From Candidatus Doudnabacteria bacterium (lineage in GTDB: Bacteria; Patescibacteriota; Doudnabacteria; UBA920; O2-02-FULL-48-8): 64,000 nt of DNA. Each line of letters starts with the position of its first letter. The stretch's first letter is position 1. Location of the stretch: positions 73,552 to 137,551 of the forward strand of contig JBBCGO010000001.1 in NCBI GenBank assembly GCA_037200925.1, given 5' to 3'. Shown here piece after piece: positions 4,754 through 19,135 of this stretch. Position numbers and translations under genes: made by a program. Under the pieces are notes generated by a model that was not told the DNA's origin, ran no database searches, and saw only the letters and a list, made by a program, of their open reading frames with translations.

Positions 4754-6226
4754 TTGACGCTTCTTCCCATGAAACTAAAACGCTATTATTTTTATTTAGT
4801 CGCAGCCTTGGCTCTTCTGATAGTTGGGTTGATCTTTGTTTATGCCGGTTCTGCCAAAGGCTTGAAGTTAGCTTCAATATTTGAACAGGGCAACCGTTCC
4901 TCGCACACCATCGTGCTTTCCAAGGGCGGCTTCAGTCCCGGCAACCTTACCATAAAAAAAGGGGATTGGGTGACTTTCACCACTACTGCCGGTCAGCAAT
5001 TTTGGCCGGCCTCAGACCCTCACCCTACACACAGCATCTATCCGGATTTTGATCCGAAACGGCCTGTCGATCCGGGTAAATCATGGAGTTTTCAGTTTGA
5101 AAAAGAAGGAACTTTCCCGTATCACGATCACTTTATTCCAAGCCTGGGAGGAACCATTGTCGTCGGCCACGCGAGTGAGATCGGAGAGAATTGCGCTGAA
5201 GATACTCAAAATCAATATTTGTGTTGGTCGAAAATGATCGATGAATCTTTGCGCAATAACGGGCTTAATTCAGCTTTCTCGCTGGTAGAAAACTTATATC
5301 AGACGCAGCCGGCATTTGCCGGCGATTGCCACCTGTTCCTTCACAAGCTGGGACAGGCGGCCTATGAAGAATTTGCAGATAAACAGGACATTGCCTTGAC
5401 CAGCGCGTCCGCCTACTGCGGTTACGGGTTTTATCACGGTTTTATGGAAAGTCTGCTTATGCAGTCGAACAATTATTCTAAGGCTTTGGAGTTTTGCCAA
5501 AAAGTTTCAGCAGAAATGTCGCAATCCTTGTCTGATGCGTGTTATCATGGAGTAGGGCATGGCGCCATGGCCGTGGGCACTATTGACCAAGCGACCTGGG
5601 GCAAGCCCGATTCTTTGGTAAGCAAGGCTTTGGCGATCTGCAATAAAGTGGCAGACTCTTCGGTAAATGTCGCGCGCTGCGCTTCCGGCTCGTTCATGGA
5701 AATTTCAAGTTATTTGTCGGGCAGCCAGTATGGTTTGTCCGCAGACGCAAAAAATCCGCTGAAGATATGCCAAGCTCAAACCGCAGAAGACATAAAAACG
5801 ACCTGCTATGCCCAGATGTATCCTGTTCTGCAGGCAGTGAGCCGCGGGAGCGTGCCCGCTGCGATCAAATATATAGAAGCGATCCCGGAAGATAATTACG
5901 CGGAAGAATCGGTAGAAACCCTTCTCGGGTCCATGGCCGGGATAAACAGCGATCAGTCAAAAAACGTGCAGGCTTGCTCTGCGGCGCAAAAGCGCCTGCA
6001 AGCCAAGTGTATCAGCGGAATTGCCTTAAGCTTTATGCTGAACGGCACACCTAACGAACAGTATAAGCAGGCGGCCGCCTTCTGCAGCACCGGCGGTTTG
6101 ACGGGCATTGAGAGAGATTCGTGTTATGATCTGATCGTAAATGAATCCAAGAATACTTATTCTGGTTCTCAGCTCCAAAATGCCTGCCAATCCCTGCCCA
6201 GTTATTATCAAAAAAAATGTTTGTAA
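4754..6226 (+). CDS. Secreted cupredoxin-like + His/Cys-rich domain protein (paralog 2)
   Basis: 'WPASDPHPTH...YHDHF', then 'CHLFLHKLG', 'CGYGFYHGF', 'CYHGVGHGA'. N-terminal TM helix. Confidence 0.6.
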   Translation: MTLLPMKLKRYYFYLVAALALLIVGLIFVYAGSAKGLKLASIFEQGNRSSHTIVLSKGGFSPGNLTIKKGDWVTFTTTAGQQFWPASDPHPTHSIYPDFDPKRPVDPGKSWSFQFEKEGTFPYHDHFIPSLGGTIVVGHASEIGENCAEDTQNQYLCWSKMIDESLRNNGLNSAFSLVENLYQTQPAFAGDCHLFLHKLGQAAYEEFADKQDIALTSASAYCGYGFYHGFMESLLMQSNNYSKALEFCQKVSAEMSQSLSDACYHGVGHGAMAVGTIDQATWGKPDSLVSKALAICNKVADSSVNVARCASGSFMEISSYLSGSQYGLSADAKNPLKICQAQTAEDIKTTCYAQMYPVLQAVSRGSVPAAIKYIEAIPEDNYAEESVETLLGSMAGINSDQSKNVQACSAAQKRLQAKCISGIALSFMLNGTPNEQYKQAAAFCSTGGLTGIERDSCYDLIVNESKNTYSGSQLQNACQSLPSYYQKKCL

Positions 6227-7281
6227 AAAATAACCGCAAATTTTTTATTATCGCCGTCGCGCTGATCTTATTTTTCCTGGGCGAATTGTTATTTTTGTCA
6301 GGCAAATTCCGGTCCGTCAAACCCGAGGCCAAGCCGGTTGCGGTAAACAGCCCGCCTGCAGATGCCGAAAAAACGGATCAAAGTTTGCAAATTTCCGCAC
6401 TGGAGCAGAAAGTGAAAGACGATCCCAATGATGCGAATTCGTCGAACAACCTGGCCAGTCTATATTTTCAAACCGGAAAATTTGACCAGGCCAAAGATCT
6501 ATATTCTAATGTTCTCAAAATCAATCCGAAAGACGTCGGAGCGATGACCGGTTTGGCGAATGTCCTGCGTTACCGCGGAGAATATGCCGAATCAGAAAAA
6601 TTGTATCTGGAAGCGATAAAAATCGATCCGGGCAATGCCTGGTCATACATTGATTTCGGGAAACTCTATCGTGACTGGAATAAACCGGCCCAAGCCGAAG
6701 CGGTTTTAATGCAAGCCGCGAAACTCAACCCCAAAGATGATAGGATATATTCTTACGGCCTGGGGTTTTTGTACAGAGATGAAGGCCGGCTTCCCGAAGC
6801 GGAAAAAATGTTCAACAAAGCCCTTCAGCTGAACCCGAATGATTATAATTACATGTCCATGGGCGATATTTACCGCGATGAGGGCAAATTTGCGGAATCA
6901 GAAACCATGTTCAAAAAAGCCCTTGAGTTAAATCCCTTGAACGAAGCTTATATGGGTATGGGGTATCTATACCTTCAGGAAGGTAAATTGGATAAAGCTG
7001 AAGAATCTTTTCAAACGTACTTGAAGCTGATCAAGCCGAAAAGCGAGGTCTATGAAGGCTTGGGCTACATCTATATCTCACAGGGCAAGCTTGCCGACGC
7101 GGAGAATGCGTTCAAAAACTCCATTGCAGTCAACCCGCACTTGTTCGGATATTTGGGCTTAGCCAGGGTCTATAATGTTGAAGGCAAGAAAGACGAAGCC
7201 ATACAGGCATTGAAAAAATCCATTGAATTGAATCCGGATGACAAAGCGGGGCCGGCCTTACTTAAACAATTGGAAGGATGA
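6217..7281 (+). CDS. TPR-repeat protein with N-terminal TM helix
   Basis: About eight degenerate 34-aa TPR units ('LASLYFQTGKFDQAKDLYSNVLKINPKD', 'YMGMGYLYLQEGKLDKAEESF'). Start overlaps the upstream stop, and its stop overlaps the next start (ATGA at 7278). Confidence 0.75.
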   Translation: MFVKNNRKFFIIAVALILFFLGELLFLSGKFRSVKPEAKPVAVNSPPADAEKTDQSLQISALEQKVKDDPNDANSSNNLASLYFQTGKFDQAKDLYSNVLKINPKDVGAMTGLANVLRYRGEYAESEKLYLEAIKIDPGNAWSYIDFGKLYRDWNKPAQAEAVLMQAAKLNPKDDRIYSYGLGFLYRDEGRLPEAEKMFNKALQLNPNDYNYMSMGDIYRDEGKFAESETMFKKALELNPLNEAYMGMGYLYLQEGKLDKAEESFQTYLKLIKPKSEVYEGLGYIYISQGKLADAENAFKNSIAVNPHLFGYLGLARVYNVEGKKDEAIQALKKSIELNPDDKAGPALLKQLEG

Positions 7282-8468
7282 GAACTTTAGCCAACAAAAA
7301 TTTTTTTCTTGTTCTCGCTGCCGCGATTTTGCTTGCCGGTTTGATTTTGGTTTTAGCTCATGCCAAAACCAGATCTCTTGCCGCCGGCAAGCAACAAACA
7401 TCTGCTGGGACCGACTGCTCCGCTTCAAACAACCAAGAGCTATGCTGGCAGCAGCAGATGAAACAGACATTGCAATCGCAAGGCCTGCCCGCGGCATTTG
7501 ATATACTGGCAAATCTTTACGACACTGCGCCGGCGTTTGCCTCGCAGTGCCATGCCTTTACCCACGAGCTGGGCCAGGAGGCATATGAAATGTTCGCATC
7601 GCACCAGGACTTCGAGCTTAATTCCAAAACCCAGTATTGCGGTTACGGGTTCTATCACGGTTTTATGGAAACGCTGCTGCAGAGCACAGGCGATGTCAGT
7701 CAGGCGCAGAATTTTTGCGCCTATGTCGGAAAGAAGCTTGCCGGCCAAACGTCCGACGGCGAGGGCGCCTGTTATCACGGCATCGGCCATGGCGCCGTCG
7801 ACGGCACGGATATAAAAGCCTGGGGAAACCCGCAGGCAATGATCGATCCCAGCTTAAAGCTTTGCAAATTTGCTTCCGGCGACAACCAGCAATTTTTATA
7901 CCGCTGCGTGACGGGTGTTTACAATGCTTTGGAAATACTTTCTTCTGACCCCCAGTACAAGCTGACAATGATCCAGAAAAATCCTTTCTGGCTGTGTCCG
8001 AGCCAGCCGGAATTTTATAAAGAACCGTGTTACACGAATATGCTGCCGTCCCTGCTTAGGTTTACAAATAATGACTTGGTGAAATCCGAGAAAATGATAG
8101 AAAAAATTCCTGAACAGACAGCCATAAAAACCACTGTCTCATACAGCCTGTTCCATGAATTTATCCGGCTGAATTTGGAGCGGCCGAATTATAATATAGA
8201 AAATGGCGTGCAGATCTGCCACGGTCTGGCAGACCCTTACCGTCTGTCATGTATCGAAGGCTTGGCCGGCGGACACATGAAATACGGCGATCCCCAACAG
8301 GCGTACGTCAAAGGCCTGGCGTTTTGTAAAATGCCGATCTTGAAAAGCGACGAAGAGGATTCATGCTATAATACAATCCTGACACGCCTGCCGATCTGGT
8401 ATTCTCCGGCAAAATCCGCTGAGATCTGCAGTTCCGTGGATGTAAAATTCCAAACTTACTGCCGATAA
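7278..8468 (+). CDS. Secreted His/Cys-rich domain protein (paralog 3; no fused cupredoxin domain)
   Basis: 'CHAFTHELG', 'CGYGFYHGF', 'CYHGIGHGA'. Same Cys spacing as the C-terminal halves of 2191 and 4754. Confidence 0.6.
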   Translation: MRTLANKNFFLVLAAAILLAGLILVLAHAKTRSLAAGKQQTSAGTDCSASNNQELCWQQQMKQTLQSQGLPAAFDILANLYDTAPAFASQCHAFTHELGQEAYEMFASHQDFELNSKTQYCGYGFYHGFMETLLQSTGDVSQAQNFCAYVGKKLAGQTSDGEGACYHGIGHGAVDGTDIKAWGNPQAMIDPSLKLCKFASGDNQQFLYRCVTGVYNALEILSSDPQYKLTMIQKNPFWLCPSQPEFYKEPCYTNMLPSLLRFTNNDLVKSEKMIEKIPEQTAIKTTVSYSLFHEFIRLNLERPNYNIENGVQICHGLADPYRLSCIEGLAGGHMKYGDPQQAYVKGLAFCKMPILKSDEEDSCYNTILTRLPIWYSPAKSAEICSSVDVKFQTYCR

Positions 8469-8475
8469 ACTTTTT

Positions 8476-8913
8476 ATGAATAAAAAAATAATAATTATTC
8501 TGCTGTGCGTCATTGTGCTTGTTCTGGGAGTCTACGCTTATAAATTAGCTTTCGTAAAGCCGTCTGACGCGGGGACAAGCCAGGCTGACTCAAATTCCGA
8601 ACCGGCTAAGTTTTCGACCCAGGATAAAATATTGCCGACCGATGTCGTCGTGAAAGTGACGGACAACGGTTTTGTGCCGGACTCGGTTACTGTTAAAAAA
8701 GGGACTCCGGTCGTGTGGCTGAACCAGACCAGCAGTTTTGTCTGGCCGGCGTCCGACCCACACCCCCTGCATACGGACTATCCCGGGTTCGATCCGCAGG
8801 AGCCGTTCAAGAATGGCGAAACTTGGGCTTTTACTTTTGACCGCGTGGGAAATTGGGGATACCATAACCACCTGCAGCCCAGCATGAAGGGAACTGTGCA
8901 CGTAACTGAATGA
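8476..8913 (+). CDS. Stand-alone cupredoxin-like domain protein with N-terminal TM
   Basis: 'WPASDPHPLHTDYPGFDPQEP...GNWGYHNHLQPSMKGTVHV' matches the N-terminal domains of 2191 and 4754. Lies immediately downstream of the His/Cys-domain gene, so it looks like a domain split in permuted order. Confidence 0.6.
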   Translation: MNKKIIIILLCVIVLVLGVYAYKLAFVKPSDAGTSQADSNSEPAKFSTQDKILPTDVVVKVTDNGFVPDSVTVKKGTPVVWLNQTSSFVWPASDPHPLHTDYPGFDPQEPFKNGETWAFTFDRVGNWGYHNHLQPSMKGTVHVTE

Positions 8914-8931: not shown

Positions 8932-10077
8932 ATGACTTCTAAGCCTCGGTTGAAAATCGGGATTGTCTGCTACCCGTCAGTCGGAGGGAGCGGAATAGTT
9001 GCTACCGACCTTGGCAATCAATTGGCCCTTTTGGGGCACGAAATCCATTTCATCAGCTATGAACGGCCTTTTCGTCTTGGCTCCAATTCCGCAAATGTTT
9101 TTTTTAATCAAGTAAAGATAAATGAATATGAACTGTTTCGCTATCCGGATTACACCCTACCTTTGGCAGTGAAGATCGGAGACATAAGCCAAAAATACAG
9201 CCTTGACATCATCCACGCTCATTATGCAATTCCTCACGCGACTGCCGCTTTGCTGGCAAAAAATATAGTCAGACATTGCAGCCAGCAGAAGCCCAAAGTG
9301 GTAACTACTCTCCACGGCACTGATATTACCCTTTTGGCCCGCGATCCGAACTTGCGTTCGATCATTCAGTATTCGATCGAAGAGTCGGATGGGGTCACTG
9401 CCGTTTCCAACAGCTTGCGCGAAGAAAGCATCAGTCTGCTGGGGATCAAAAAAGCCGTCGAAGTCATTTATAATTTTTATCAGCCCAAGATCCCGGCCAT
9501 ACCGGCAGCGCAAATAAGGAAGGATTTGGGGATCGGAACGGACGAATTTATGGTTATTCACCTTTCCAATCTTCGTCCCGTCAAACGCATTCCGGACCTC
9601 CTGCGAATAGTCGCCGCGTCGAAGCATGTGCGCAAACTGAAGCTGGTGATCTTATCCGGCGGCAATTTTGAGCAATTCCTGCCGCTGGTTGACGAGTTAA
9701 AATTGAAAAACAACATCATTGTCCGCGAAAACATTTTAGATATTGAAAATTATATCAATGCAGCCGATCTGGGCATTTATCCGTCCGAAACGGAAAGCTT
9801 CGGCATGGGTATTTTAGAAACCCTGAGCTTCGGTAAGCCTGTTCTGGCCAGCAATTCAGGAGGCATTCCCGAAGTCATGCAGCACGGCAGAACCGGATAT
9901 CTCTATCCGGTGGGAGATGTCCAATCGTTCACACAAGGCCTTGATGAACTGATCGAAAATCCTCAAGAAAGGCAGAAGATGGGGGAGCGGGGCAAGGTTC
10001 GGGCCCAAAGCTTATTTAATACCGAGAAAATAGTTAAAGAATATTTTGATTTTTATCAAAAAACCCTGAATTCCTAG
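8932..10077 (+). CDS. GT4 glycosyltransferase, BshA-like (N-acetylglucosaminyl-malate synthase family)
   Basis: 'KIGIVCYPSVGGSGIVATDLGNQLALLGHEIHFIS...HAHYAIPHA...VTTLHGTDIT...VTAVS' closely follows the BshA N-terminal consensus. The ORF is open from 8914 (TTG); the ATG at 8932 is preferred. Confidence 0.65.
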   Translation: MTSKPRLKIGIVCYPSVGGSGIVATDLGNQLALLGHEIHFISYERPFRLGSNSANVFFNQVKINEYELFRYPDYTLPLAVKIGDISQKYSLDIIHAHYAIPHATAALLAKNIVRHCSQQKPKVVTTLHGTDITLLARDPNLRSIIQYSIEESDGVTAVSNSLREESISLLGIKKAVEVIYNFYQPKIPAIPAAQIRKDLGIGTDEFMVIHLSNLRPVKRIPDLLRIVAASKHVRKLKLVILSGGNFEQFLPLVDELKLKNNIIVRENILDIENYINAADLGIYPSETESFGMGILETLSFGKPVLASNSGGIPEVMQHGRTGYLYPVGDVQSFTQGLDELIENPQERQKMGERGKVRAQSLFNTEKIVKEYFDFYQKTLNS

Positions 10078-10202
10078 GCATTTTGCTATCATTTGACAAA
10101 TCCGGGCGAAAGGTGTAAATTATTGTGTTATAGTAGAGATATAGGATTCTTCTTTTTCGGTTATTCAGTTATGTATAATTTTTGGCCTCCAAGGAGGATG
10201 CC

Positions 10203-10940
10203 ATGCGACGGTTGATCATCTCGTTCGTGTTTGTGCTTGCGGCACACGCTCACGCGTTCGCCGCGGATCCGCCCGGACCGGTTCAGCAGGCCTACAGCGA
10301 GCGGCAGCTGACCGCAATCGAAGCGGCCATCGGCGATTCTGCTGCCGTGATCTGGCAAGCTGCTAATCAGCAATCGGCCGAGGTCAAGACCAAGCTTGTC
10401 TTGGGACTTGAAACGAACAGGAAGAAGAACGGGTTCGTTCTCCTGGACGGGAACAAGCCGCTGATCGGTCTCTTGCAGCAGCAGTATGACAAACTGAAGC
10501 CAGGGAACCCGCGTCCCGTTGTGATCCATTTGTTCCGTAGCAATTCGGAGCAATTCAACACAATCGGCGACGATGTCTACCTCGATGCCGCCACTGTCAG
10601 AGGACTTTCAGGGATGGCGGGCGGACAACTCGTCCTGCTCGGAATTCTGGCTCATGAAGTCAGCCACGAACCTGCCGACTTCGCGCGAATCCAGCTGTTC
10701 GGATCGCAGAATTTCACGCCGGATCTGAAAAAGATCCTCATACAGCGCCTTGAAAATCGCACAGATGAACGTGCAGTCAAGATGCTGGAAGATGCAGGGC
10801 TTGACCCCGCCGTGATGATCCGCGTTGTTCAGATGCTCATCGAGAGCAATCCGAATGAAGCCACGCGGCTCGCGGCTCGGAAGGGCCGGATCGAAGAAGT
10901 GATCAAAGCCCGCACTGTGGCTACCGCCGGCTCGCGCTAA
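10203..10940 (+). CDS. Secreted HExxH (zincin-like) metallopeptidase-like protein; GC-rich cassette
   Basis: Signal peptide 'MRRLIISFVFVLAAHAHAFA', then 'LAHEVSHE' HExxH. About 58% GC with G/C-ending codons. AAGGAGG sits 5 nt before the ATG; the ORF track starts at 10182. Confidence 0.55.
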   Translation: MRRLIISFVFVLAAHAHAFAADPPGPVQQAYSERQLTAIEAAIGDSAAVIWQAANQQSAEVKTKLVLGLETNRKKNGFVLLDGNKPLIGLLQQQYDKLKPGNPRPVVIHLFRSNSEQFNTIGDDVYLDAATVRGLSGMAGGQLVLLGILAHEVSHEPADFARIQLFGSQNFTPDLKKILIQRLENRTDERAVKMLEDAGLDPAVMIRVVQMLIESNPNEATRLAARKGRIEEVIKARTVATAGSR

Positions 10941-11075
10941 GGTTTGCCTTATGCGATCGGACTTTTTGACTTAGGAGATAGCAGATCAACATCTGCTTCA
11001 CCTGGGTCTTTTTCTTTTACATTTTTTTTAAAATATGTTTTAATAAGCTGGTATTGTAGATAATTAAAAAACCGG

Positions 11076-11561
11076 ATGGGAAACAAAAAAAACCTTACAA
11101 TACTTGCGGTTTTAACGCTAATTTTTGTAACCGGGGTTTATTTGGCTTATAGATATAGGACCCCGGTACACCAGGTTCAAATCGGTCTTTTTGATGAAAC
11201 TGAGTCGCCCGACGCAGCCTATACGATTACTTTCCCTAATGTAACCAGAATGGTTTTTAGCCCCGACCAGAAGCCTTTAAGCGATTTGGTTTATTCCTTG
11301 AATTCCGGGCCCCAATATTTTATTGTTACCTATAATAACGGTAAAAAGGGTGATGAGGTTACTTTCAATGCAATTGGCACGGTAGATGAATTAATGAGTT
11401 TTTATTCAGGTCAAAAAAATTATCAGGTCATAAAAAAATACAGTAATGACAAGCAAGGCTTTGTAGAGTTAATCCAAGGCACGACAAGCATCAGGGTTTT
11501 ACTGATACAGCAAACCCCAGCTACGACGGTAAAAGTTACTATTCAAGGAATAACCAATTGA
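11076..11561 (+). CDS. Small N-terminally anchored membrane protein (module partner 1)
   Basis: N-terminal TM, then a ~130-aa beta-rich domain ending 'TTVKVTIQGITN'. Stop is 1 nt before the next start. Confidence 0.5.
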   Translation: MGNKKNLTILAVLTLIFVTGVYLAYRYRTPVHQVQIGLFDETESPDAAYTITFPNVTRMVFSPDQKPLSDLVYSLNSGPQYFIVTYNNGKKGDEVTFNAIGTVDELMSFYSGQKNYQVIKKYSNDKQGFVELIQGTTSIRVLLIQQTPATTVKVTIQGITN

Positions 11562-11562
11562 T

Positions 11563-13059
11563 ATGAAACGTAACTTATATTATTTATTGGCTTTCTTGTT
11601 CCTGGTTTTTATTGTTTTATCGCCGTCCAAAGAAGCGAAGGCGAACTCCACAACGTGTTACACGGCGGAAGGGACCGGAGGATCCGAGAATTTTTATTGT
11701 ACCCCGGCAAACGGATATACATGTGATTGCGGCGCTAACAGTGCCAGTTGTACCGATAACGGATCATATACTTGGCACGATGCCTATGGGAATTCCGGAA
11801 CTTGCTGGTCGGGATCAACTTGTAGCTGCACCACTACTTCCTATTCTTGTGGGGGCGGATCTACCTGCGATGGTCCTGTAAATGGAACCGGAAACGGCAC
11901 TCCCGGACAGACCGTTTGCGGTACGAACGGATGGACGTACACCTGCACTGCTCCGGGAAGTTGGATCGGGGGGCCGGGTTTTGGAAGTACATGTCCTGCT
12001 TGCTATTCTCAATCATCCTACTACTCTCAATCCAGTTATTACTCCCAATCATCCTACTACTCTCAATCCTCCTACTATTCCCAATCTTCTTATTACTCCC
12101 AAGCAGCCTACTACGCCCAATCAGCATACTACTCTCAGGCAACCTATTATAGTCAAGCAACTTATTACTCCCAAGCCGCCTACTACGCCCAATCAGCATA
12201 CTACTCTCAAGCAACCTATTATAGTCAGGCAACCTACTACTCCCAGGCAGCATATGTAGTAGCTCCCACAGCCCCGACCCTGACCAAAGTGGATAATATC
12301 AATACCGATGCTTCGGTGCCCTGTTCTAAGCTGAAAGTAACCTGGACTGATAACTCCGGCAATGAAACCGGCTTCATAGTCCTGCGATCAACCACATCAG
12401 GCTCAGGGTATGCCAATATCTCAGGCAACCTGCCTGCCCAGAGCGGCACAGGCACCTTTGGCACTTACCTGGATACCCCTCCTTCCACCGGAGTGACCTA
12501 TTTCTATGTGGTCCAGGCCTTCAATGCCGGGGGCAACAGCCAGTCAAACGAGAAGAGCATCATGAACGTTGTCTGTTCTGCCAACTTTGCCAATACAACG
12601 AAGTTTGTCAGTAAGGTCAACGGCAACCCCTATAGTCCCAGCACTTCAGTCAATAACGGGGATACCCTGACCTACCAGATCACCCTGGTCAATTCCGGCC
12701 CTTCTGCAGCCACGGTCAACTACATCTGCGACACTGTCTCTTCCAACCTGACCAATCTTAGGAACCTGACGGTTACAGGCCCGGGCTCTGTTAATGGGGG
12801 ACTGACAGCCAACAGCCCTACCTGCTCCGGTAATTATCTGTTTAACATCTCAGGCAACAAGGATGTGACCAATAACTGGATCATTACCTATGATGCCAAT
12901 GTCAGCACCGCATCCGCCGATATCCAGGAAGTGGTGACCAATACCTTTACCATCCATTACACTGATTCTTCAGCCAAAAGCTTCTCAGGCTCAGCCCCGA
13001 ACATCATTGTCAATTCCTCCACAGGCAAGACCCCGATCATCAGGGAAGTCGGGCCGTAG
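11563..13059 (+). CDS. Secreted Cys-rich protein with (S-Y-Y-S-Q)n pentapeptide tandem repeat, Fn3-like and DUF11-like domains (repeat protein A)
   Basis: Signal/TM, then a Cys/Gly/Thr-rich module. About 17 copies of 'SYYSQ' variants follow, then 'KVTWTDNSGNETGF...YFYVVQAFNAGG' (Fn3-like) and 'GDTLTYQITLVNSG' (DUF11-like). Confidence 0.6.
   Translation: MKRNLYYLLAFLFLVFIVLSPSKEAKANSTTCYTAEGTGGSENFYCTPANGYTCDCGANSASCTDNGSYTWHDAYGNSGTCWSGSTCSCTTTSYSCGGGSTCDGPVNGTGNGTPGQTVCGTNGWTYTCTAPGSWIGGPGFGSTCPACYSQSSYYSQSSYYSQSSYYSQSSYYSQSSYYSQAAYYAQSAYYSQATYYSQATYYSQAAYYAQSAYYSQATYYSQATYYSQAAYVVAPTAPTLTKVDNINTDASVPCSKLKVTWTDNSGNETGFIVLRSTTSGSGYANISGNLPAQSGTGTFGTYLDTPPSTGVTYFYVVQAFNAGGNSQSNEKSIMNVVCSANFANTTKFVSKVNGNPYSPSTSVNNGDTLTYQITLVNSGPSAATVNYICDTVSSNLTNLRNLTVTGPGSVNGGLTANSPTCSGNYLFNISGNKDVTNNWIITYDANVSTASADIQEVVTNTFTIHYTDSSAKSFSGSAPNIIVNSSTGKTPIIREVGP
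11998..12255 (+). repeat. Imperfect 15-bp tandem repeat (~17 units) encoding the SYYSQ pentapeptide array in repeat protein A
   Basis: 'tactactctcaatcc / agttattactcccaatcatcc...' has period 15. Equivalent arrays lie at 13969..14040 and 14167..14395 in protein B and 17646..17873 in protein C. Confidence 0.85.
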
Positions 13060-13105
13060 AAATGTTCGAAAAAGTCTGATAAAATAAATTATAAACACAA
13101 AATTT

Positions 13106-13678
13106 ATGGCAAACAGATATATCGCTTTGATCATAGTTTTGATAGCTCTCGCGATCGGGGGAGTATTCATCGGAGTTGTGTATTGGATCAATTTCCCGGT
13201 CAAAGCTCCTGCAACCGGACAAACAAGCACCACAACAACCAGCGCGTCTGCGGTAAATCCGGCTCCTTCACTCCCTCAAGCAGTCCCTGCCTCAACTCCC
13301 GAAGATTTGCTGAAAGTAATGCGCACGTATGCAAAAATCTCCGTCCCGGAAATTGCCTCGCAAACAGATGCCACAGCCAAGGACATACCCAGTCCCATTG
13401 CCACTTTACTCGGATCACAAACAAACTTAAAGGTAACAGCTGTGAATTATGCGAACAAATCATCCGGGCTTATTATTGAATTTGCAGAGCCGAAAAATGT
13501 TCAGGATACTTTTACCATATTCCGTCACCCCAGCAGCGATTGGAACGTATTGTCGGGAACTAATGCTCCTATGGCCGCTTTAGTTGATCTGGATAATGCC
13601 AATTACTCTGTTGTAATTGAATTGAGCCAAGTTGCGGATACCCAAACAGCGGTAAAGACCTGGGTCATAAAGAAGTAA
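13106..13678 (+). CDS. Small N-terminally anchored membrane protein (module partner 2)
   Basis: TM 'IALIIVLIALAIGGVFIGVVYWI', a Thr/Ser/Pro linker, then a beta-rich domain ending 'TAVKTWVIKK'. Confidence 0.5.
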   Translation: MANRYIALIIVLIALAIGGVFIGVVYWINFPVKAPATGQTSTTTTSASAVNPAPSLPQAVPASTPEDLLKVMRTYAKISVPEIASQTDATAKDIPSPIATLLGSQTNLKVTAVNYANKSSGLIIEFAEPKNVQDTFTIFRHPSSDWNVLSGTNAPMAALVDLDNANYSVVIELSQVADTQTAVKTWVIKK

Positions 13679-13698: not shown

Positions 13699-15174
13699 TT
13701 GAAACAAATACGCAAACAATTAGTGCTGTATATTGTGCTAGGCCTTGCAACTGCCATGGTATTTTTTGCAGTGCCTCATTCTTCAGCTGATACGATTTGG
13801 TGTTCTACTTTCCAATTTTGCAATGGAGGCGCTTCCTGTGCACCAAATCCATCAATGGCTCCAACCGATTGCCCTTCTACTGGCCATTGTTCAGATAATG
13901 GTTTTTCAATATGCGGCGATTTTCTTTATTGCGATAATGGTAATTATGCCATTTGCGATGCAACATACTCCCAATCCTCCTACTACTCCCAATCCAGTTA
14001 TTACTCCCAGGCAGCCTATTATTCCCAACCATCCTATTATTCTGAACCGCAATATTATCGCTGGCAGGGAGGCGGGGGATGCATATGTATGCCGGCCAAT
14101 CCAGGTGACTGCGTCATAACCAACACTGCAAATTGCACGGTAAACTCTAACTGCGCTGGTCTTCCTGCCTGCTACTCTCAATCCTCCTACTATTCCCAAT
14201 CAGCTTACTACGCCCAATCAGCATATTACTCCCAATCAGCATACTATTCTCAAGCGTCATATGGCGGCGGTTATTCCCAAGCAGCTTACTACGCCCAGTC
14301 TGCATACTATTCTCAGGCAGCCTATGCGGGTTACTCTGAAGCATCCTACTATTCCCAAGCAGCCTACTATGCCCAGGCATCGTATGTCTCTGCTCCAACC
14401 GCTCCTTCAGGCGTGGCTGTGGACAATGGCACTTGCGGCCAATTGACCGTGACCTGGACTGATAATTCCAACAATGAGACCGGTTTTACAATATGGAGAT
14501 CAACCACATCAGGCTCAGGGTATGGCCAGGTCGGCAGCGTAGGCCCTAATATTACGTCATTCCCAGACACCCCTCCTACCCCAGATATGACCTATTATTA
14601 TGTGGTCCAGTCGGTCAATGCCGGAGGAAGCACCCAGTCAGTATTAGAAGCAAGCGCTTACGACAACCCGTGTGTTGCCAATTTATCCGGGACCGCCAAG
14701 GTCTTAACCCAGATCAACGGCGCAGCCTATTCTTCAAGCACTTCCATCAACGCCGGGGACGTGCTGACATACCAGATCACGATCATCAATTCCGGCAATG
14801 CCCCTGCTGATATCACTTTCATCTGCGACACCGTCTCTTCCAACCTGACCAATCTTCGGAACCTGACGGTTACAGGAACCGGCTCTTCGGGTTCAGGTTC
14901 TGCCATAGTATCCAACGGCGGCTGCGGAGCAGGCAGCTACAAGTTCAACGTTACAGGAGCCAAACAGCCCTCTCCTCCTGACCCAGGCAACTGGATAATT
15001 ACCTATGATGCCACAGTCACCCCGGCCAGTGCTGATATCCAGGAAGTGGTGACCAACAGCTTTGTCATCCATTACAACAACAACGGAGCTAAAACCTTTG
15101 CAGGCTCCTCCCCGAGCATCCTCATCAATGCCTCAGCAGGCCAGGCCCCGAACTTCCATGAAGTGACGCCGTAG
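13699..15174 (+). CDS. Secreted Cys-rich SYYSQ-repeat / Fn3-like / DUF11-like protein (repeat protein B)
   Basis: Same architecture as protein A. Its 3' ~1 kb is ~99% identical to 17646..18656. Confidence 0.6.
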   Translation: MKQIRKQLVLYIVLGLATAMVFFAVPHSSADTIWCSTFQFCNGGASCAPNPSMAPTDCPSTGHCSDNGFSICGDFLYCDNGNYAICDATYSQSSYYSQSSYYSQAAYYSQPSYYSEPQYYRWQGGGGCICMPANPGDCVITNTANCTVNSNCAGLPACYSQSSYYSQSAYYAQSAYYSQSAYYSQASYGGGYSQAAYYAQSAYYSQAAYAGYSEASYYSQAAYYAQASYVSAPTAPSGVAVDNGTCGQLTVTWTDNSNNETGFTIWRSTTSGSGYGQVGSVGPNITSFPDTPPTPDMTYYYVVQSVNAGGSTQSVLEASAYDNPCVANLSGTAKVLTQINGAAYSSSTSINAGDVLTYQITIINSGNAPADITFICDTVSSNLTNLRNLTVTGTGSSGSGSAIVSNGGCGAGSYKFNVTGAKQPSPPDPGNWIITYDATVTPASADIQEVVTNSFVIHYNNNGAKTFAGSSPSILINASAGQAPNFHEVTP

Positions 15175-15914: not shown

Positions 15915-16628
15915 ATGAAACTAATTCCCAAGCGCTATTTGATAATAGTAAGCATCTTTGTCATCGGAATATTTTTAACCGTTGCAGCTTACAGCACGCT
16001 TCGCTTTCATGAGAAAAATAAAACACCAGTTTCTGCGGACAGCGCAAAGTCTGAACCTATCGTCCGATCACCTCAGGAAATGCTTAAGGAGCTGAGCAGG
16101 AACTCCCCTCAATTAGGAAGTCCAAACGCCCCGATTCAGGTCGTGGAATTTGCGGATTTTCAATGCCCATACTGCGAACAGTTTTATGCCACTGCTTTTA
16201 ATCAGATAAATGATAAGTATGTTAAAACAGGAAAGGTAAAATTTATTTTTGCCGACGCCCCGATCATCGGAGAAGAGTCGACGATCGCGGCCCGCGGAGG
16301 CAAGTGTGCGGATGAGCAGGGAAAATTTTGGGACTATTACAATTATTTGTTTCAGCATCAGAAACCCGAGAATAACGGCAACCTGAGAACATCTAATTTG
16401 AAAAAGATAGCTTTGCAGATCGGTCTCGATGGAGAGCAGTTTGACGCTTGCCTGGATTCGCAAAAATACGCTTCCGAGGTATCTGATGAATTGAAACTTT
16501 TCGGCGTGCTTGGCATTACCGGGACGCCTGGATTTGTCATTAATGATCAGGTAGTATCAGGCTATAAAGCGGGGGTAATTCAGGGGATAATTGATAAAGA
16601 ATTGAAGTCTATCGATCCGAATCCTTGA
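15915..16628 (+). CDS. DsbA/thioredoxin-family thiol:disulfide oxidoreductase, membrane anchored
   Basis: 'VVEFADFQCPYCEQF' CPYC active site, plus an N-terminal TM. Confidence 0.8.
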   Translation: MKLIPKRYLIIVSIFVIGIFLTVAAYSTLRFHEKNKTPVSADSAKSEPIVRSPQEMLKELSRNSPQLGSPNAPIQVVEFADFQCPYCEQFYATAFNQINDKYVKTGKVKFIFADAPIIGEESTIAARGGKCADEQGKFWDYYNYLFQHQKPENNGNLRTSNLKKIALQIGLDGEQFDACLDSQKYASEVSDELKLFGVLGITGTPGFVINDQVVSGYKAGVIQGIIDKELKSIDPNP

Positions 16629-16694: not shown

Positions 16695-17252
16695 ATGAAT
16701 AAAGCAGTCAAATGGGTTCTTATTGTAATCTTGATTTTGGGTGTAATAATCAGTGCTGGGTTCCTTGCAGTGAAATACTGGCCTAAGAATACCAATTCTC
16801 AGGCGAACATTCTTCAAAGAGAACAAGCAGCGGATGCCTATGTTCCAAGCAAAGACCCGGCAGCTGATCTGGCGGCAGACAAACAGAAACTTCTTAAGCT
16901 CGCTACGTTAAATTTTCTGGCGATTGATACGTCTGAGGTTTCCGATGTGCCTTCGGATCTGAATTTTTTGAAGATAAAGGATGCCACAAATTTAGTATCA
17001 AATAAAGTCAGCTACACTGACGGTTCAAATGGATTTTTGATAACAATGGATCTGGATTATCCTCTGTTTTCCGCCTATCAGACCGAAGCCAGGAGCATAC
17101 ACTATGAACAAGGCTGGAGCCAGATTTATGGAGCTATCACTAATACATTTGCTTTGCTGGAAGCAAAAAATAATACCAATCAGATCCAGATCAGGTTTAC
17201 AAGATTATCAACCGAACTTACAACCGTCGAGATTAAAGTACTGACGAAATGA
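16695..17252 (+). CDS. Small N-terminally anchored membrane protein (module partner 3)
   Basis: TM 'WVLIVILILGVIISAGFLAV', beta-rich domain ending 'TTVEIKVLTK'. Its stop overlaps the next start (ATGA). Confidence 0.5.
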   Translation: MNKAVKWVLIVILILGVIISAGFLAVKYWPKNTNSQANILQREQAADAYVPSKDPAADLAADKQKLLKLATLNFLAIDTSEVSDVPSDLNFLKIKDATNLVSNKVSYTDGSNGFLITMDLDYPLFSAYQTEARSIHYEQGWSQIYGAITNTFALLEAKNNTNQIQIRFTRLSTELTTVEIKVLTK

Positions 17253-18652
17253 CAATATCAAACAAATTTTTATTCATAATTATTATTTTGGCGAGTGTTG
17301 GGGCTCTGTTTGTTACTGTAAAAATTAGCAATGCACAGACTTGTTGGACTTATGGCTGTGATGGGGTGAGTGGTGAATGCAGGGTTGCCGGCAATACTTG
17401 CGGGGGCGGACAGACTTGTGTGGATCAAGGTTTTGTAACTTGCCCTGCGGGCGGGTGCGGCGAATCTTTTAGCTGCGTGACTTCTTATTCCCAATCATCC
17501 TATGTATACAACACCCCCTACTCTGAACCGCAATATTTTCGGTGTTCAGGGAGCGCACAAAGCGTATGCATTCCGGCTAATCCCGGCGACTGCACCATAG
17601 GTAATACTGCAAATTGTTCAGTAAATAATAACTGCAGCCCTATTACCTGCTACTCTCAATCCTCCTACTATTCCCAATCAGCTTACTACGCCCAATCAGC
17701 ATATTACTCCCAATCAGCATACTATTCTCAAGCGTCATATGGCGGCGGTTATTCCCAAGCAGCTTACTACGCCCAGTCTGCATACTATTCTCAGGCAGCC
17801 TATGCGGGTTACTCTGAAGCATCCTACTATTCCCAAGCAGCCTACTATGCCCAGGCATCGTATGTCTCTGCTCCAACCGCTCCTTCAGGCGTGGCTGTGG
17901 ACAATGGCACTTGCGGCCAATTGACCGTGACCTGGACTGATAATTCCAACAATGAGACCGGTTTTACAATATGGAGATCAACCACATCAGGCTCAGGGTA
18001 TGGCCAGGTCGGCAGCGTAGGCCCTAATATTACGTCATTCCCAGACACCCCTCCTACCCCAGATATGACCTATTATTATGTGGTCCAGTCGGTCAATGCC
18101 GGAGGAAGCACCCAGTCAGTATTAGAAGCAAGCGCTTACGACAACCCGTGTGTTGCCAATTTATCCGGGACCGCCAAGGTCTTAACCCAGATCAACGGCG
18201 CAGCCTATTCTTCAAGCACTTCCATCAACGCCGGGGACGTGCTGACATACCAGATCACGATCATCAATTCCGGCAATGCCCCTGCTGATATCACTTTCAT
18301 CTGCGACACCGTCTCTTCCAACCTGACCAATCTTCGGAACCTGACGGTTACAGGAACCGGCTCTTCGGGTTCAGGTTCTGCCATAGTATCCAACGGCGGC
18401 TGCGGAGCAGGCAGCTACAAGTTCAACGTTACAGGAGCCAAACAGCCCTCTCCTCCGGACCCCGGCAACTGGATAATTACCTATGATGCCACAGTCACCC
18501 CGGCCAGTGCTGATATCCAGGAAGTGGTGACCAACAGCTTTGTCATCCATTACAACAACAACGGAGCTAAAACCTTTGCAGGCTCCTCCCCGAGCATCCT
18601 CATCAATGCCTCAGCAGGCCAGGCCCCGAACTTCCATGAAGTGACGCCGTAG
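17249..18652 (+). CDS. Secreted Cys-rich SYYSQ-repeat / Fn3-like / DUF11-like protein (repeat protein C)
   Basis: Divergent Cys-rich N-terminus. From 'CYSQSSYYSQSAYY' to the stop it is ~99% identical at the nt level to protein B. Confidence 0.6.
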   Translation: MTISNKFLFIIIILASVGALFVTVKISNAQTCWTYGCDGVSGECRVAGNTCGGGQTCVDQGFVTCPAGGCGESFSCVTSYSQSSYVYNTPYSEPQYFRCSGSAQSVCIPANPGDCTIGNTANCSVNNNCSPITCYSQSSYYSQSAYYAQSAYYSQSAYYSQASYGGGYSQAAYYAQSAYYSQAAYAGYSEASYYSQAAYYAQASYVSAPTAPSGVAVDNGTCGQLTVTWTDNSNNETGFTIWRSTTSGSGYGQVGSVGPNITSFPDTPPTPDMTYYYVVQSVNAGGSTQSVLEASAYDNPCVANLSGTAKVLTQINGAAYSSSTSINAGDVLTYQITIINSGNAPADITFICDTVSSNLTNLRNLTVTGTGSSGSGSAIVSNGGCGAGSYKFNVTGAKQPSPPDPGNWIITYDATVTPASADIQEVVTNSFVIHYNNNGAKTFAGSSPSILINASAGQAPNFHEVTP

Positions 18653-18700: not shown

Positions 18701-18784
18701 GACCACGTTTCCTTTAGTCGAGGGGAAGCTAATTAAAACATAGGGTGCTGAATAGGTTTCCCTTTGTTTGAAGGTTCATATAAA

Positions 18785-19135
18785 ATGGGTAAGAAATTGT
18801 TTGTCGGAGGCCTGCCTTACACCACAACCAGCGACGATCTGAAGAATCATTTCGCCGCAGCGGGAAATGTGGTTACAGCGCAAGTCATTACCGACAAGTT
18901 CTCCGGCCGATCCAAAGGATTTGGATTCGTGGAGATGTCATCCGACGACGAAGCAGCCAAGGCGATTGAAATGTTCAACGGCACTGACTTCGGCGGACGC
19001 TCTTTGGCTGTAAACGAAGCAAGGCCAAAGACCGAAGGCGATCGCGGAGGCAGTCGCGGCGGATTCGGCGGCGGACGCGGCGGCAGTGACCGCGGCGGGT
19101 ACGGCGGTGGCGGCGGTCGAAGAGACAGCTATTAA
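18785..19135 (+). CDS. Glycine-rich RNA-binding protein, single RRM
   Basis: RNP-2 'LFVGGL', RNP-1 'KGFGFVEM', C-terminal 'GGSRGGFGGGRGGSDRGGYGGGGG'. GAAGG ribosome-binding site before the ATG at 18785; the ORF track starts at 18764. Confidence 0.85.
   Translation: MGKKLFVGGLPYTTTSDDLKNHFAAAGNVVTAQVITDKFSGRSKGFGFVEMSSDDEAAKAIEMFNGTDFGGRSLAVNEARPKTEGDRGGSRGGFGGGRGGSDRGGYGGGGGRRDSY

Follow-up and report, generated by a model that had tools for sequence, protein, structure and literature searches.

The analysed window, a stretch of 64,000 nt from a Candidatus Doudnabacteria (Patescibacteria/CPR) genome, contains three neighbouring paralogous genes that carry tyrosine-rich tandem repeats, raising the question of whether these repeats vary in length at high frequency or turn over only slowly, and what the encoded array may do in the proteins. 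The first-pass annotation had described the repeat in the first gene (gene A) as a 15-bp minisatellite encoding a pentapeptide and as a classic substrate for expansion and contraction. The features of gene A are as follows.

11563–13059, + strand: gene A, an ORF of 498 aa, called at the same length on NCBI contig JBBCBH010000057.1
12004–12255, + strand: array A, 14 tandem units of 18 nt (252 nt), from Tandem Repeats Finder, lag-18 identity and unit parsing
12106–12249, + strand: higher-order repeat within array A, two 72-nt (four-unit) copies at 12106–12177 and 12178–12249

Unit, period and reading frame of the repeat

Tandem Repeats Finder and lag identity confirmed an imperfect in-frame tandem repeat at the position originally given (11998–12255); the end at 12255 proved exact, whereas the array proper begins two codons later, at 12004. 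The 15-bp period and the pentapeptide unit were wrong: when lag 15 was tested directly, its identity (0.37) equalled the background, leading us to reject this period, and the second example that had been offered for the pentapeptide, 'tat tac tcc caa gca gcc', comprises six codons and thus a hexapeptide. Tandem Repeats Finder reported the array at 12003–12251 with periods of 18, 54 and 72 (13.1 copies and scores of 150–272 for period 18), and the lag-18 identity reached 0.70 compared with 0.39 ± 0.03 (maximum 0.51) in 2,000 codon shuffles, so that the 18-bp array shows, above chance, the head-to-tail arrangement of a coding minisatellite or VNTR. The unit is 18 nt long, a multiple of three, and encodes the hexapeptide Y-x-Q-x-x-Y in the frame of a real gene. 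Unit parsing gave exactly 14 units in array A rather than about 17, in the order YSQSSY ×5, (YSQAAY YAQSAY YSQATY YSQATY) ×2, YSQAAY, and the 84 residues comprise 28 Y (33%), 24 S (29%), 14 Q (17%), 14 A (17%) and 4 T (5%). The two 72-nt copies are identical at 66 of 72 positions and hold the sole exact repeat longer than 20 nt in array A (32 nt); in the gene A frame, each of the six differences sits at a third codon position and is silent (P of six of six being synonymous, ∼1e-4 to 1e-3). This four-unit duplication is recent.

Two observations fix the reading frame of gene A, namely the FN3-like and DUF11-like domains encoded downstream of the array and the silence of all six differences between the 72-nt copies. 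Several other ORFs overlap the arrays.

11861–12253, − strand: antisense ORF of 130 aa, judged spurious
14147–14398 and 17643–17876, − strand: antisense ORFs, judged spurious
11847–12152 and 11882–12259, + strand: alternative sense-strand frames, judged spurious

All five had been listed as spurious antisense ORFs generated by the repeats; such overlapping ORFs do exist, and those at 11861, 14147 and 17643 are antisense, but those at 11847 and 11882 are alternative frames of the sense strand. The antisense ORF at 11861–12253 is open only because the repeat has no stops. Alternative-frame and antisense ORFs were rejected as real genes, given that, of all open frames, only the annotated one leaves the peptide unaltered by the differences between the 72-nt copies; in each other open frame they change five to seven residues, and stop codons close the one further frame that they would leave unaltered. 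The three neighbouring paralogs carry an old, imperfect coding minisatellite of 18-bp units, whose product is a Tyr/Ser/Gln-rich hexapeptide array, (Y-x-Q-x-x-Y)n.

Paralogous arrays and turnover of the units

The second and third genes (B and C) each contain two arrays, and share a long tract of DNA.

13699–15174, + strand: gene B, 491 aa, paralog of gene A, differing in its Cys-rich head and carrying two arrays
13966–14055, + strand: array B1, five units (YSQSSY YSQSSY YSQAAY YSQPSY YSEPQY), 5′ of a Cys-containing spacer
14173–14385, + strand: array B2, 11 units (5 + 3 + 3) with breaks GGG (14263–14271) and AG (14326–14331)
17249–18652, + strand: gene C, 467 aa, paralog
17486–17536, + strand: remnant array C1, two decayed units (YSQSSY and YSEPQY) with VYNTP between them; counterpart of B1
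17651–17863, + strand: array C2, 11 units, DNA identical to array B2
14168–15174, + strand: duplicated or converted tract of 1,007 nt, second copy at 17646–18652, two differences

Gene B thus has 5 and 11 units instead of the 4 and about 14 previously counted, and gene C has 2 degenerate units and 11, where about 14 had been given. The accompanying statement that copy number differs between the paralogs is right when A is set against B or C, and also for B1 and C1 (5 versus 2), but wrong for B2 and C2. The head of gene C is related to that of gene B, with ∼73% DNA identity immediately upstream of the array, and the C-terminal 335 codons of gene C are the same as those of gene B. The shared tract starts exactly at the Cys-YSQ array start and ends at the stop codon; over its first 811 nt the two copies agree without exception, and they then differ at two synonymous positions, 14979 and 14985. 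On our reading, more of the variation at this locus comes from recombination or gene conversion between paralogs; the 1-kb module from array to stop is near-exact in B and C.

The near-identity of B and C, or the repeat number itself, could in principle reflect repeats collapsed or mis-resolved during metagenome assembly, and 811 nt of perfect identity could be one collapsed unitig placed twice. Short-read contigs from Logan are indeed interrupted by the 32-nt repeat and at the ends of the B/C duplication: independent contigs matched the window at 100% as far as the k-mer repeat edges, each stopping at an exact repeat of at least 31 nt, one (L024) at 12133 inside the 32-mer of array A and two others (L027 and L021) at 14197 and 17675, ∼30 nt inside the edge of the B/C tract. 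We nevertheless regard such an artefact as very improbable, since two synonymous differences separate the B and C copies, the reading frames are all intact and the flanks match independent contigs at 100%. Furthermore, gene A is also 498 aa in the independent NCBI assembly GCA_015689235.1 (compared by gene length), where the contig runs on ∼990 nt into gene B. An exact look-up of protein A matched the window's own contig alone.

At the DNA level, the identity between units was 60–77%, about 70%. Same-residue codon identity between units of array A was 0.514 relative to 0.528 expected from random draws on the array's own codon usage, indicating no recent homogenisation of the units. Unit distance 4 alone stood out (0.815 compared with ∼0.70 at other distances), and the longest exact repeats measured 32 nt in A and 12–16 nt in B and C. 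Array codons are biased towards TAC (67%) and CAA (79%) relative to the rest of the window (35% and 36%, respectively), and this departure indicates that the units still bear the signature of their founder and are not fully at equilibrium. The randomised synonymous sites between units and the exclusively silent differences between the 72-nt copies indicate that the peptide is under purifying selection and that the DNA is a poor substrate for slippage. We infer that the units arose by tandem duplication, through replication slippage or unequal recombination, and that selection on the peptide would afterwards have kept the units while their synonymous sites drifted apart; on such a course, unit number would shift over evolutionary time rather than frequently. 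Only the higher-order repeat of 72 nt in array A is left as a good substrate, predicting gains or losses of four units.

Size-variable surface repeats are familiar from the FLO and ALS adhesins of yeast, the Vlp and Vsa proteins of mycoplasmas and the streptococcal alpha C protein, in which gain and loss of units alters protein length; these arrays consist of long, near-identical DNA units that recombine frequently. The arrays described here are likewise in-frame tandem repeats in surface proteins, but their units are short, ∼70% identical and synonymously saturated.

Unit number has changed over evolutionary time, as had been proposed: array A contains the 72-nt duplication, B1 has five units where C1 has two, and relatives carry other Tyr-rich repeats. 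A stronger reading treats the arrays as hypermutable, contingency-type sequences in which slipped strands or recombination would often add or remove units and so vary the length of the surface protein within populations. The in-frame repeats in secreted proteins, the 32-nt exact repeat with its recent four-unit duplication, the different first arrays of B and C, the full turnover of repeat type between relatives and the strain-to-strain variation of staphylococcal 18-bp R-domains (PMC6533592) would all fit this reading, which we nonetheless consider unlikely. The units are ∼70% identical with randomised synonymous sites, instead of the near-perfect units of a contingency locus; B and C have no exact repeat longer than 16 nt; gene A is of equal length in the second assembly; and independent contigs are free of variants as far as the repeat edges. 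Nor does the repeat lend itself to switching by frameshift or promoter spacing, because an 18-nt unit lying inside the coding region is a multiple of three, which excludes on/off switching and leaves changes in protein length only. Constant lengths were also found elsewhere: in two unrelated array proteins no length change was detected among alleles at least 90% identical, and their alleles of 95–99% identity have equal unit numbers (P0037 and P0263, 95% identical, share one unit number; P0069, P0264 and P0265 have identical arrays). The description of a classic, slippage-prone and currently variable array is thus unsupported, and nothing in the analysis shows hypervariability; length variants at low frequency may still occur.

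Among known systems, staphylococcal Fbl and ClfA come closest, with their 18-bp SDSDSA stalk repeat. The R-domains of Fbl (SDSDSA) and of ClfA and the Sdr proteins (SD) are encoded by imperfect 18-bp repeats and are interpreted as a flexible stalk; in Fbl and ClfA, the unit variants are mostly synonymous and the copy number varies between strains, yet was stable over 30 subcultures (PMC6533592). Both systems share an 18-bp unit, a hexapeptide and mostly synonymous unit variants, and in both a low-complexity, Ser-rich array of a secreted adhesin lies between its ligand-binding head and its C-terminal portion. They differ in that the peptide here is built of Tyr, Gln, Ser and Ala and lacks Asp, whereas the staphylococcal unit is Ser-Asp, and in that two Ig-like domains and a non-LPXTG tail take the place of the wall-spanning segment and sortase signal; the staphylococcal LPXTG motif, membrane span and charged tail were not found. 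Furthermore, the main arrays have 11–14 units as compared with 9–52 in Fbl, for which strain-level variation is known, and the host belongs to the CPR. SD repeats are reported to be glycosylated by SdgA and SdgB (PMC3794999), a modification with no known equivalent here. At the level of DNA, such an array is commonplace in surface-protein genes and invites direct comparison with the repeats of the staphylococcal R-domains.

Protein architecture and gene neighbourhood

Gene A encodes, in order, a signal peptide, a Cys-rich head, the Y-x-Q-x-x-Y array, an FN3-like domain, a DUF11-like Ig domain and a C-terminal tail ending in REVGP before the stop; all three proteins have N-terminal signal-like segments, and their C-termini end in ...REVGP or ...HEVTP directly before the stop, without a hydrophobic C-terminus, within a conserved tail x-F-x-E-V-[AGST]-P. 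In AlphaFold models, residues ∼230–488 of protein A reached a pLDDT of 82–92, compared with ∼22 for array A in the full-length model and 35 for a model of the array only, from an 11-sequence array alignment, which contained one low-confidence helix. A hidden fold such as a β-solenoid was rejected because none appeared in the array-only model. The array is probably disordered and unfolded in these models, although low AlphaFold confidence alone is no proof of disorder. Neither Pfam nor NCBIfam models matched the array itself in A, B, C or ten other array proteins, and a PDB sequence search revealed no solved-structure homolog; designed TPR proteins with an 'AYYKQGDY' motif appeared among the PDB matches, but were rejected as relatives because their similarity is compositional and not homologous.

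The C-terminal two-domain base matched, by Foldseek, the C123 region of AgI/II, the Ig-like domains of PrgB and the Gram-positive pilins BcpA and SpaD. These belong to the same fold class at 9–14% identity, but differ in having LPXTG, in place of which the conserved tail is found here. Sequence profiles gave scores close to or below their thresholds: the DUF11 repeat model TIGR01451 matched A at 25.5 bits (cutoff 24) and B at 22.1 bits, just under it; Pfam DUF11 (PF01345) scored 17.6–18.7 bits (cutoff 24.6); and FN3 (PF00041) scored 15.6–15.9 bits in B and C (gathering cutoff 25), with no match in A. The FN3-like fold is backed instead by AlphaFold, Foldseek and FN3-annotated homologs, and the RrgB isopeptide domain (TIGR04226) matched the base weakly. 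Genes for small membrane-anchored proteins and a thiol-disulfide oxidoreductase lie among the three paralogs.

11076–11561, + strand: small ORF, 161 aa, with an N-terminal membrane anchor, directly 5′ of gene A
13106–13678 and 16695–17252: paralogs of this ORF, 5′ of genes B and C, respectively
15915–16628, + strand: DsbA-like thiol-disulfide oxidoreductase between genes B and C (Thioredoxin_4, 5e-32; DSBA, 3e-17)

The small proteins are 18–19% identical with one common layout, and have equivalents in two relatives (L001 and L003); the DsbA-like gene, which is syntenic in L001, agrees with oxidative folding of the Cys-rich secreted heads. The signal-like segments, the DsbA-like gene, the DUF11 and RrgB matches and the Foldseek results together suggest that the proteins are extracytoplasmic and adhesin-like, and support this part of the original description, a tandem repeat within the coding sequence of proteins that are secreted and adhesin-like; a cell-surface location, and a stalk or adhesive role of the array, would be consistent with this.

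Taken together, the account that we favour, and consider fairly likely, is that of an old 18-bp minisatellite with slow unit turnover and conversion between paralogs, whose product would form an extended, unfolded 'sticky stalk' parting the variable Cys-rich head from the conserved FN3-like and DUF11-like base and tail.

Distribution and possible role of the array

When the conserved C-terminal module was used as a query against GTDB genomes and JGI metagenomes, the only relatives found were 39–61% identical, with no near-identical strain, and proteins A, B and C were absent from the clustered protein collection. SecA proteins 84–89% identical (P0141–P0143) point to genomes of related Doudnabacteria. 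Directly N-terminal to the FN3-like domain, L001 and P0002 carry (YQ/YE/YP)n, L003 carries (EYP/SYP)n and L002 carries poly-Pro, while L005–L012 have no array at this position. Among homologs with the same C-terminal module, the position of the array is conserved and its sequence replaceable.

The array itself was then followed beyond this module. An array-only word-index search gave only five matches, whereas an exhaustive HMMER search of 1.84 billion representative proteins with the array gave 105 at E ≤ 1e-3; ∼36 of the fetched proteins were clear array carriers. An N-terminal hydrophobic segment was present in 28 of these ∼36 proteins, with the array directly after the segment in 22, and the fusion partners included type IV pilin-like N-termini and PG_binding_1, subtilase, SpaA-like and PT-HINT domains. 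Among the 373 units of 36 proteins, Y1 and Y6 were invariant and Q3 was retained in 84% (E in 16%), with Gly at unit positions 4 and 5, a residue almost missing from the arrays of the window. A related adhesin-like locus was found in a Saccharibacteria genome. Literature searches, at the level of titles and abstracts, returned no description of a Y-x-Q-x-x-Y-type repeat among the matches listed, and nothing relevant on tyrosine-rich repeats in Patescibacteria.

That otherwise unrelated proteins strictly conserve Y1, Q3 and Y6, and that pilin-like proteins and a subtilase carry arrays at their extreme C-termini, is a point against a passive spacer and suggests a specific role in binding or self-assembly.

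In eukaryotes, low-complexity domains of the FUS family carry [G/S]Y[G/S]Q repeats. The array resembles them in its composition, dominated by Ser, Tyr and Gln, in the regular spacing of Tyr and in the predicted disorder of the monomer; it differs in its strict six-residue period, adjacent Tyr-Tyr pairs, 33% Tyr and near absence of Gly, and in being bacterial and extracytoplasmic. The array might be a functional module: a multivalent binder of host or cell-wall glycans by way of a tyrosine/glutamine ladder, a FUS-like self-associator forming cross-β structures or hydrogels, or a substrate for oxidative Tyr-Tyr cross-linking, an idea that overlaps the favoured account on the evolution of the DNA and that we consider possible but doubtful. 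The conservation of the three unit positions across 36 proteins would fit it, as would the arrays that form the free C-terminus of pilin-like proteins and of a subtilase or lie beside PG_binding_1 domains, the Tyr-rich nature of the replacement repeats in relatives (bar the poly-Pro in L002) and the cupredoxin-like proteins in two of the loci. The sequence YYSQ lies on the cellulose-binding face of carbohydrate-binding module 1 (CBM1). As a lead only, work on cellulose-binding peptides from this module also contains peptide sequences with 'YYSQ' (PMC11389687). Against such a module, both AlphaFold runs lacked a confident fold, no solved structure is related in sequence, and the base functions without the array, to judge from the relatives with poly-Pro or no array. 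Still more tentatively, and with a rather low probability, the array may be an undescribed, rare and conserved extracellular module on envelope proteins of uncultured bacteria, joined to adhesin-like and type IV pilin-like proteins, peptidoglycan-binding proteases and HINT-domain proteins, a tyrosine-ladder 'glue' that binds glycans or cell wall or associates with itself.

For the old minisatellite with its putative unfolded stalk, the corrected period and unit counts prevent a wrong 'pentapeptide' annotation, and the corrected repeat structure accounts for several spurious ORFs and for the points at which short-read assemblies break off. Neither Pfam nor NCBIfam has a family for the Tyr-Tyr-x-Gln hexapeptide, which recurs in secreted pilin, peptidoglycan-binding and adhesin contexts. 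The modular organisation of the locus, in which variable Cys-rich heads are combined with a conserved stalk, base and tail homogenised between paralogs, could guide studies of CPR cell surfaces, and a tyrosine-ladder 'glue', if real, would aid the attachment of possibly episymbiotic cells.

Repeat period, unit counts and reading frame of the arrays

The region 11998-12255 lies inside the 498-codon ORF 11563..13059 (+) of gene A, the first of three paralogous secreted adhesin-like genes (A, B and C), and was resolved by Tandem Repeats Finder as a single array (12003-12251) with periods of 18, 54 and 72; period 15 was not reported for it. The self-identity of array A reached its maximum of 0.70 at lags 18 and 36, compared with a lag-18 identity of 0.39 +/- 0.03 (maximum 0.51; n=2000) in the codon-shuffled array, and the lag-15 identity of 0.37 was at the level of other out-of-register multiples of 3. 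The array reported in the first-pass annotation is thus real, whereas its description as a 15-bp pentapeptide repeat was a misreading of a true period of 18, and its counts of 17, 4+14 and 14 units for genes A, B and C were wrong because they came from division by 15. The in-frame natural unit is Y-x-Q-x-x-Y, which gives the following counts (A, 14; B, 5 + 11; C, 2 + 11):

12004-12255, + strand: array A, exactly 14 units
13966-14055: first array of gene B, 5 units
14173-14385: second array of gene B, 5+3+3 units, broken by GGG and AG
17486-17536: first array of gene C, 2 decayed units
17651-17863: second array of gene C, 11 units

Array A, with a Cys before it and VVAP after it, is ordered as YSQSSY x5, (YSQAAY YAQSAY YSQATY YSQATY) x2 and YSQAAY. 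Identity between units was 60-77%, and positions with the same residue carried an identical codon in 51.4% of the unit comparisons, relative to 52.8% expected if codons were drawn at random with the frequencies found in the array; synonymous sites have therefore been randomised between units. Unit distance 4 stands apart (identity of 0.815 versus about 0.70), and the array contains an internal duplication:

12106-12177 and 12178-12249: 72-nt duplication in array A, 66/72 identical

The sole long exact repeat of array A (32 nt) falls within this duplication; the longest exact repeat inside the arrays of B and C is 12-16 nt. All six differences between the 72-nt copies are silent changes at codon position 3 (P about 1e-4 to 1e-3), and the same differences alter 5-7 residues in each other open frame; one antisense frame also has the six silent, but it is closed by stop codons. 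This pattern fixes the reading frame of gene A and shows purifying selection on the array peptide; it also identifies the overlapping ORFs as mere side effects of a repeat that has no stop codons, and they were accordingly rejected as genes. The earlier listing of spurious antisense ORFs holds for 11861, 14147 and 17643, and those at 11847 and 11882 are sense-strand alternative frames. Codon usage of the arrays differs from that elsewhere in the window (TAC, 67% versus 35%; CAA, 79% versus 36%), a skew that looks like the residual signature of a founder unit. Across 12004-12255 and 13966-14385 the coding strand is G-poor, and the codons TCG, AGC and GCG hardly occur: array A has none of them, and the second array of gene B has one TCG and two GCG.

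Paralog recombination and repeat turnover

Comparison of genes B and C revealed a shared tract with 811 nt identical and 2 differences, both synonymous, over 1007 nt:

14168-15174 = 17646-18652: B/C duplicated tract

The tract starts exactly at the array's Cys-YSQ and ends at the stop codon, with about 73% identity upstream and unrelated flanks downstream. The main arrays of B and C are therefore the same, and the copy-number difference initially claimed between paralogs does not extend to this identical pair. A module of array, base and tail has recently been duplicated or converted onto two different heads; as a 1-kb direct repeat, 3.5 kb apart, it offers recombination a far better substrate than the 18-bp units do. 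The pattern recurs in a Saccharibacteria relative with the same C-terminal module (L001), whose two paralogs are identical over about 115 C-terminal residues; the C-terminal halves of the L001 paralogs (7491-8780 and 10252-11493) are identical and their (YQ/YE/YP)n arrays different.

Short-read assembly contigs (Logan; SRR28211699 and SRR10968259) were 100% identical to the window and ended about 30 nt inside exact repeats, one within the array A 32-mer (at 12133) and others at 14197 and 17675 at the edge of the B/C duplication; such breaks are expected from a k = 31 assembly graph and are no demonstration of variation. Gene A, compared by gene length, also spans 498 aa in the independent NCBI assembly GCA_015689235.1. 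Unit numbers were further compared between alleles at least 90% identical of two unrelated array-bearing proteins: P0037 and P0263 have equal numbers, with two point substitutions within the array, and the arrays of P0069, P0264 and P0265 are identical. Closer strains were not found among GTDB genomes and JGI metagenomes. Repeat turnover over longer times is clear from the homologs with the same C-terminal module, whose sequence immediately N-terminal to the FN3-like domain is (YQ/YE/YP)n in L001 and P0002, (EYP/SYP)n in L003 and poly-Pro in L002; L005-L012 have no array there. The proposed expansion and contraction is thus upheld over evolutionary time, whereas hypervariability now is not supported, and the divergence of the units, the equal length of gene A in two assemblies and the equal unit numbers of alleles weigh against it.

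Composition, distribution and analogues of the hexapeptide module

Array A consists of Tyr (33%), Ser (29%), Gln (17%), Ala (17%) and Thr (5%). Its AlphaFold pLDDT is about 22 when the full-length protein is modelled and 35 in an array-only model from 11 aligned arrays; the array is matched by no Pfam or NCBIfam model, and no homologous solved structure was found. When 1.84 billion representative proteins were searched exhaustively with HMMER, 105 matches were obtained at E <= 1e-3, and 36 of all fetched proteins carried at least 4 units. The 373 units of these carriers define the profile Y1, x2 S/A/T/G, Q3 84% (E 16%), x4 S/G/A, x5 S/T/A/G, Y6. An N-terminal hydrophobic segment is present in 28/36 carriers; the array comes directly after such a segment in 22 carriers, has an internal position in 10 and is C-terminal in 4. 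Among the parts fused to it are type IV pilin-like N-termini, PG_binding_1 (alone or together with subtilase), and SpaA-like, T4SS-pilin-like and PT-HINT domains. The array fits an envelope-associated, extended segment. Given the strict conservation of Tyr and Gln in the units and the location of arrays at free ends, it could alternatively serve specifically in binding or self-association, a rival reading. Four metagenomic proteins with the array (P0014, P0055, P0079 and P0127) are type IV pilin-like (GF[ST]LIE N-terminus) with the array at or near the C-terminus; a pilin with a disordered Tyr-rich tail is unusual. Proteins A, B and C are not in the 15-billion-protein clustered collection, so that the homology search had no self-match; the collection does hold their immediate neighbours from the same NCBI contig (MEJ0021032.1, MEJ0021034.1 and MEJ0021038.1).

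The closest described counterpart is the R-domain of staphylococcal Fbl and ClfA, a stalk projecting the ligand-binding domain, in which 18-bp repeats encode the hexapeptide SDSDSA or SD dipeptides, the numerous variants of the unit are distinguished mainly by synonymous changes, and copy number ranges from 9 to 52 among strains and is stable over 30 subcultures (PMC6533592). The window arrays resemble it in layout and DNA behaviour but lack Ser-Asp and a downstream LPXTG signal, and are not members of that family. In composition they resemble FUS-type domains, which have the form [G/S]Y[G/S]Q, a likeness that covers composition and predicted disorder only.

Protein architecture and gene neighbourhood

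The SecA protein encoded in the window is 100% identical to one from a Candidatus Doudnabacteria MAG, and exact protein matches assign the window to contig JBBCBH010000057.1 (964 kb) of NCBI assembly GCA_037975565.1. The gene calls of that contig give 498, 491 and 467 aa for A, B and C, each with an N-terminal signal-like segment, a Cys-rich region, the array and an FN3/DUF11-like segment, in this order. The last segment has weak matches to FN3 and DUF11/DUF7927 (the NCBIfam DUF11 repeat in A being just above cutoff) and to an RrgB isopeptide domain. AlphaFold predicted two beta-sandwich domains with confidence in the C-terminal 260 residues (pLDDT 82-92), matched by Foldseek to Ig-like domains of the Gram-positive adhesins/pilins AgI/II C123, PrgB, BcpA and SpaD, and gave low confidence for the head, array and last 10 residues. 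A DsbA-like gene sits between B and C, and the locus is bordered by glycosyltransferase, MurG and MurC genes; the simplest reading of A, B and C is that they are secreted cell-surface proteins.

All members of the adhesin-like family end in one tail, P-x-[FI]-x-E-V-[AGST]-P, with the stop codon immediately after it (13033-13059, 15148-15174, 18626-18652; L001-L013); its E, V and final P are invariant in 5/5 aligned sequences and recur in 13/13 loci read. The tail has low AlphaFold confidence and no hydrophobic segment. It is neither an LPXTG nor a known x-CTERM signal and resembles a short linear motif for recognition or anchoring. Each window adhesin-like gene has, directly upstream, a gene for a small protein of 161-190 aa that carries a membrane anchor at its N-terminus, also found in relatives:

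11076-11561: small anchored protein, window
13106-13678: small anchored protein, window
16695-17252: small anchored protein, window
5773-6333, L001: small anchored protein
6994-7494, L001: small anchored protein
9522-10259, L001: small anchored protein
562-1128, L003: small anchored protein

These form one very divergent family (18-19% identity). The small protein directly precedes the adhesin-like gene at 2/3 sites in L001, and in L003 it is upstream but separated from that gene by about 0.9 kb that includes another ORF. Junctions abut or overlap in 2/3 window pairs (11561/11563; 17252/17249, a 4-nt overlap), which suggests a translationally coupled partner, possibly a membrane anchor or chaperone for the conserved tail. 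Directly after the L001 paralogs, three ORFs have prepilin-type N-termini (11490-13439), and this locus may be functionally linked to type IV pili. Cupredoxin-like proteins occur near the Tyr-rich adhesin genes at two loci (window 4754-6226; L003 3412-3786); a copper protein beside very Tyr-rich secreted proteins raises, as a lead only, the possibility of oxidative Tyr chemistry. A secreted HExxH protein with weak Peptidase_M48 likeness is syntenic with the adhesin genes (window 10182-10940; L001 8867-9586). Elsewhere in the window, an RRM-domain RNA-binding protein (18764-19135) has a Gly/Arg-rich tail from an imperfect CGG/12-nt repeat (19056-19116), and the N-terminal part of the ORF 43415-45244 weakly matches conjugative coupling proteins of the TraD/VirD4 type; among its neighbours at 40923-43405, the ORF 42080-43405 was scanned and had no family match.

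Taken together, the array is a variant within a familiar class of surface-protein repeats, and its value lies mainly in the unannotated Tyr-Tyr-x-Gln hexapeptide module and in a modular, recombining adhesin locus in a CPR bacterium.
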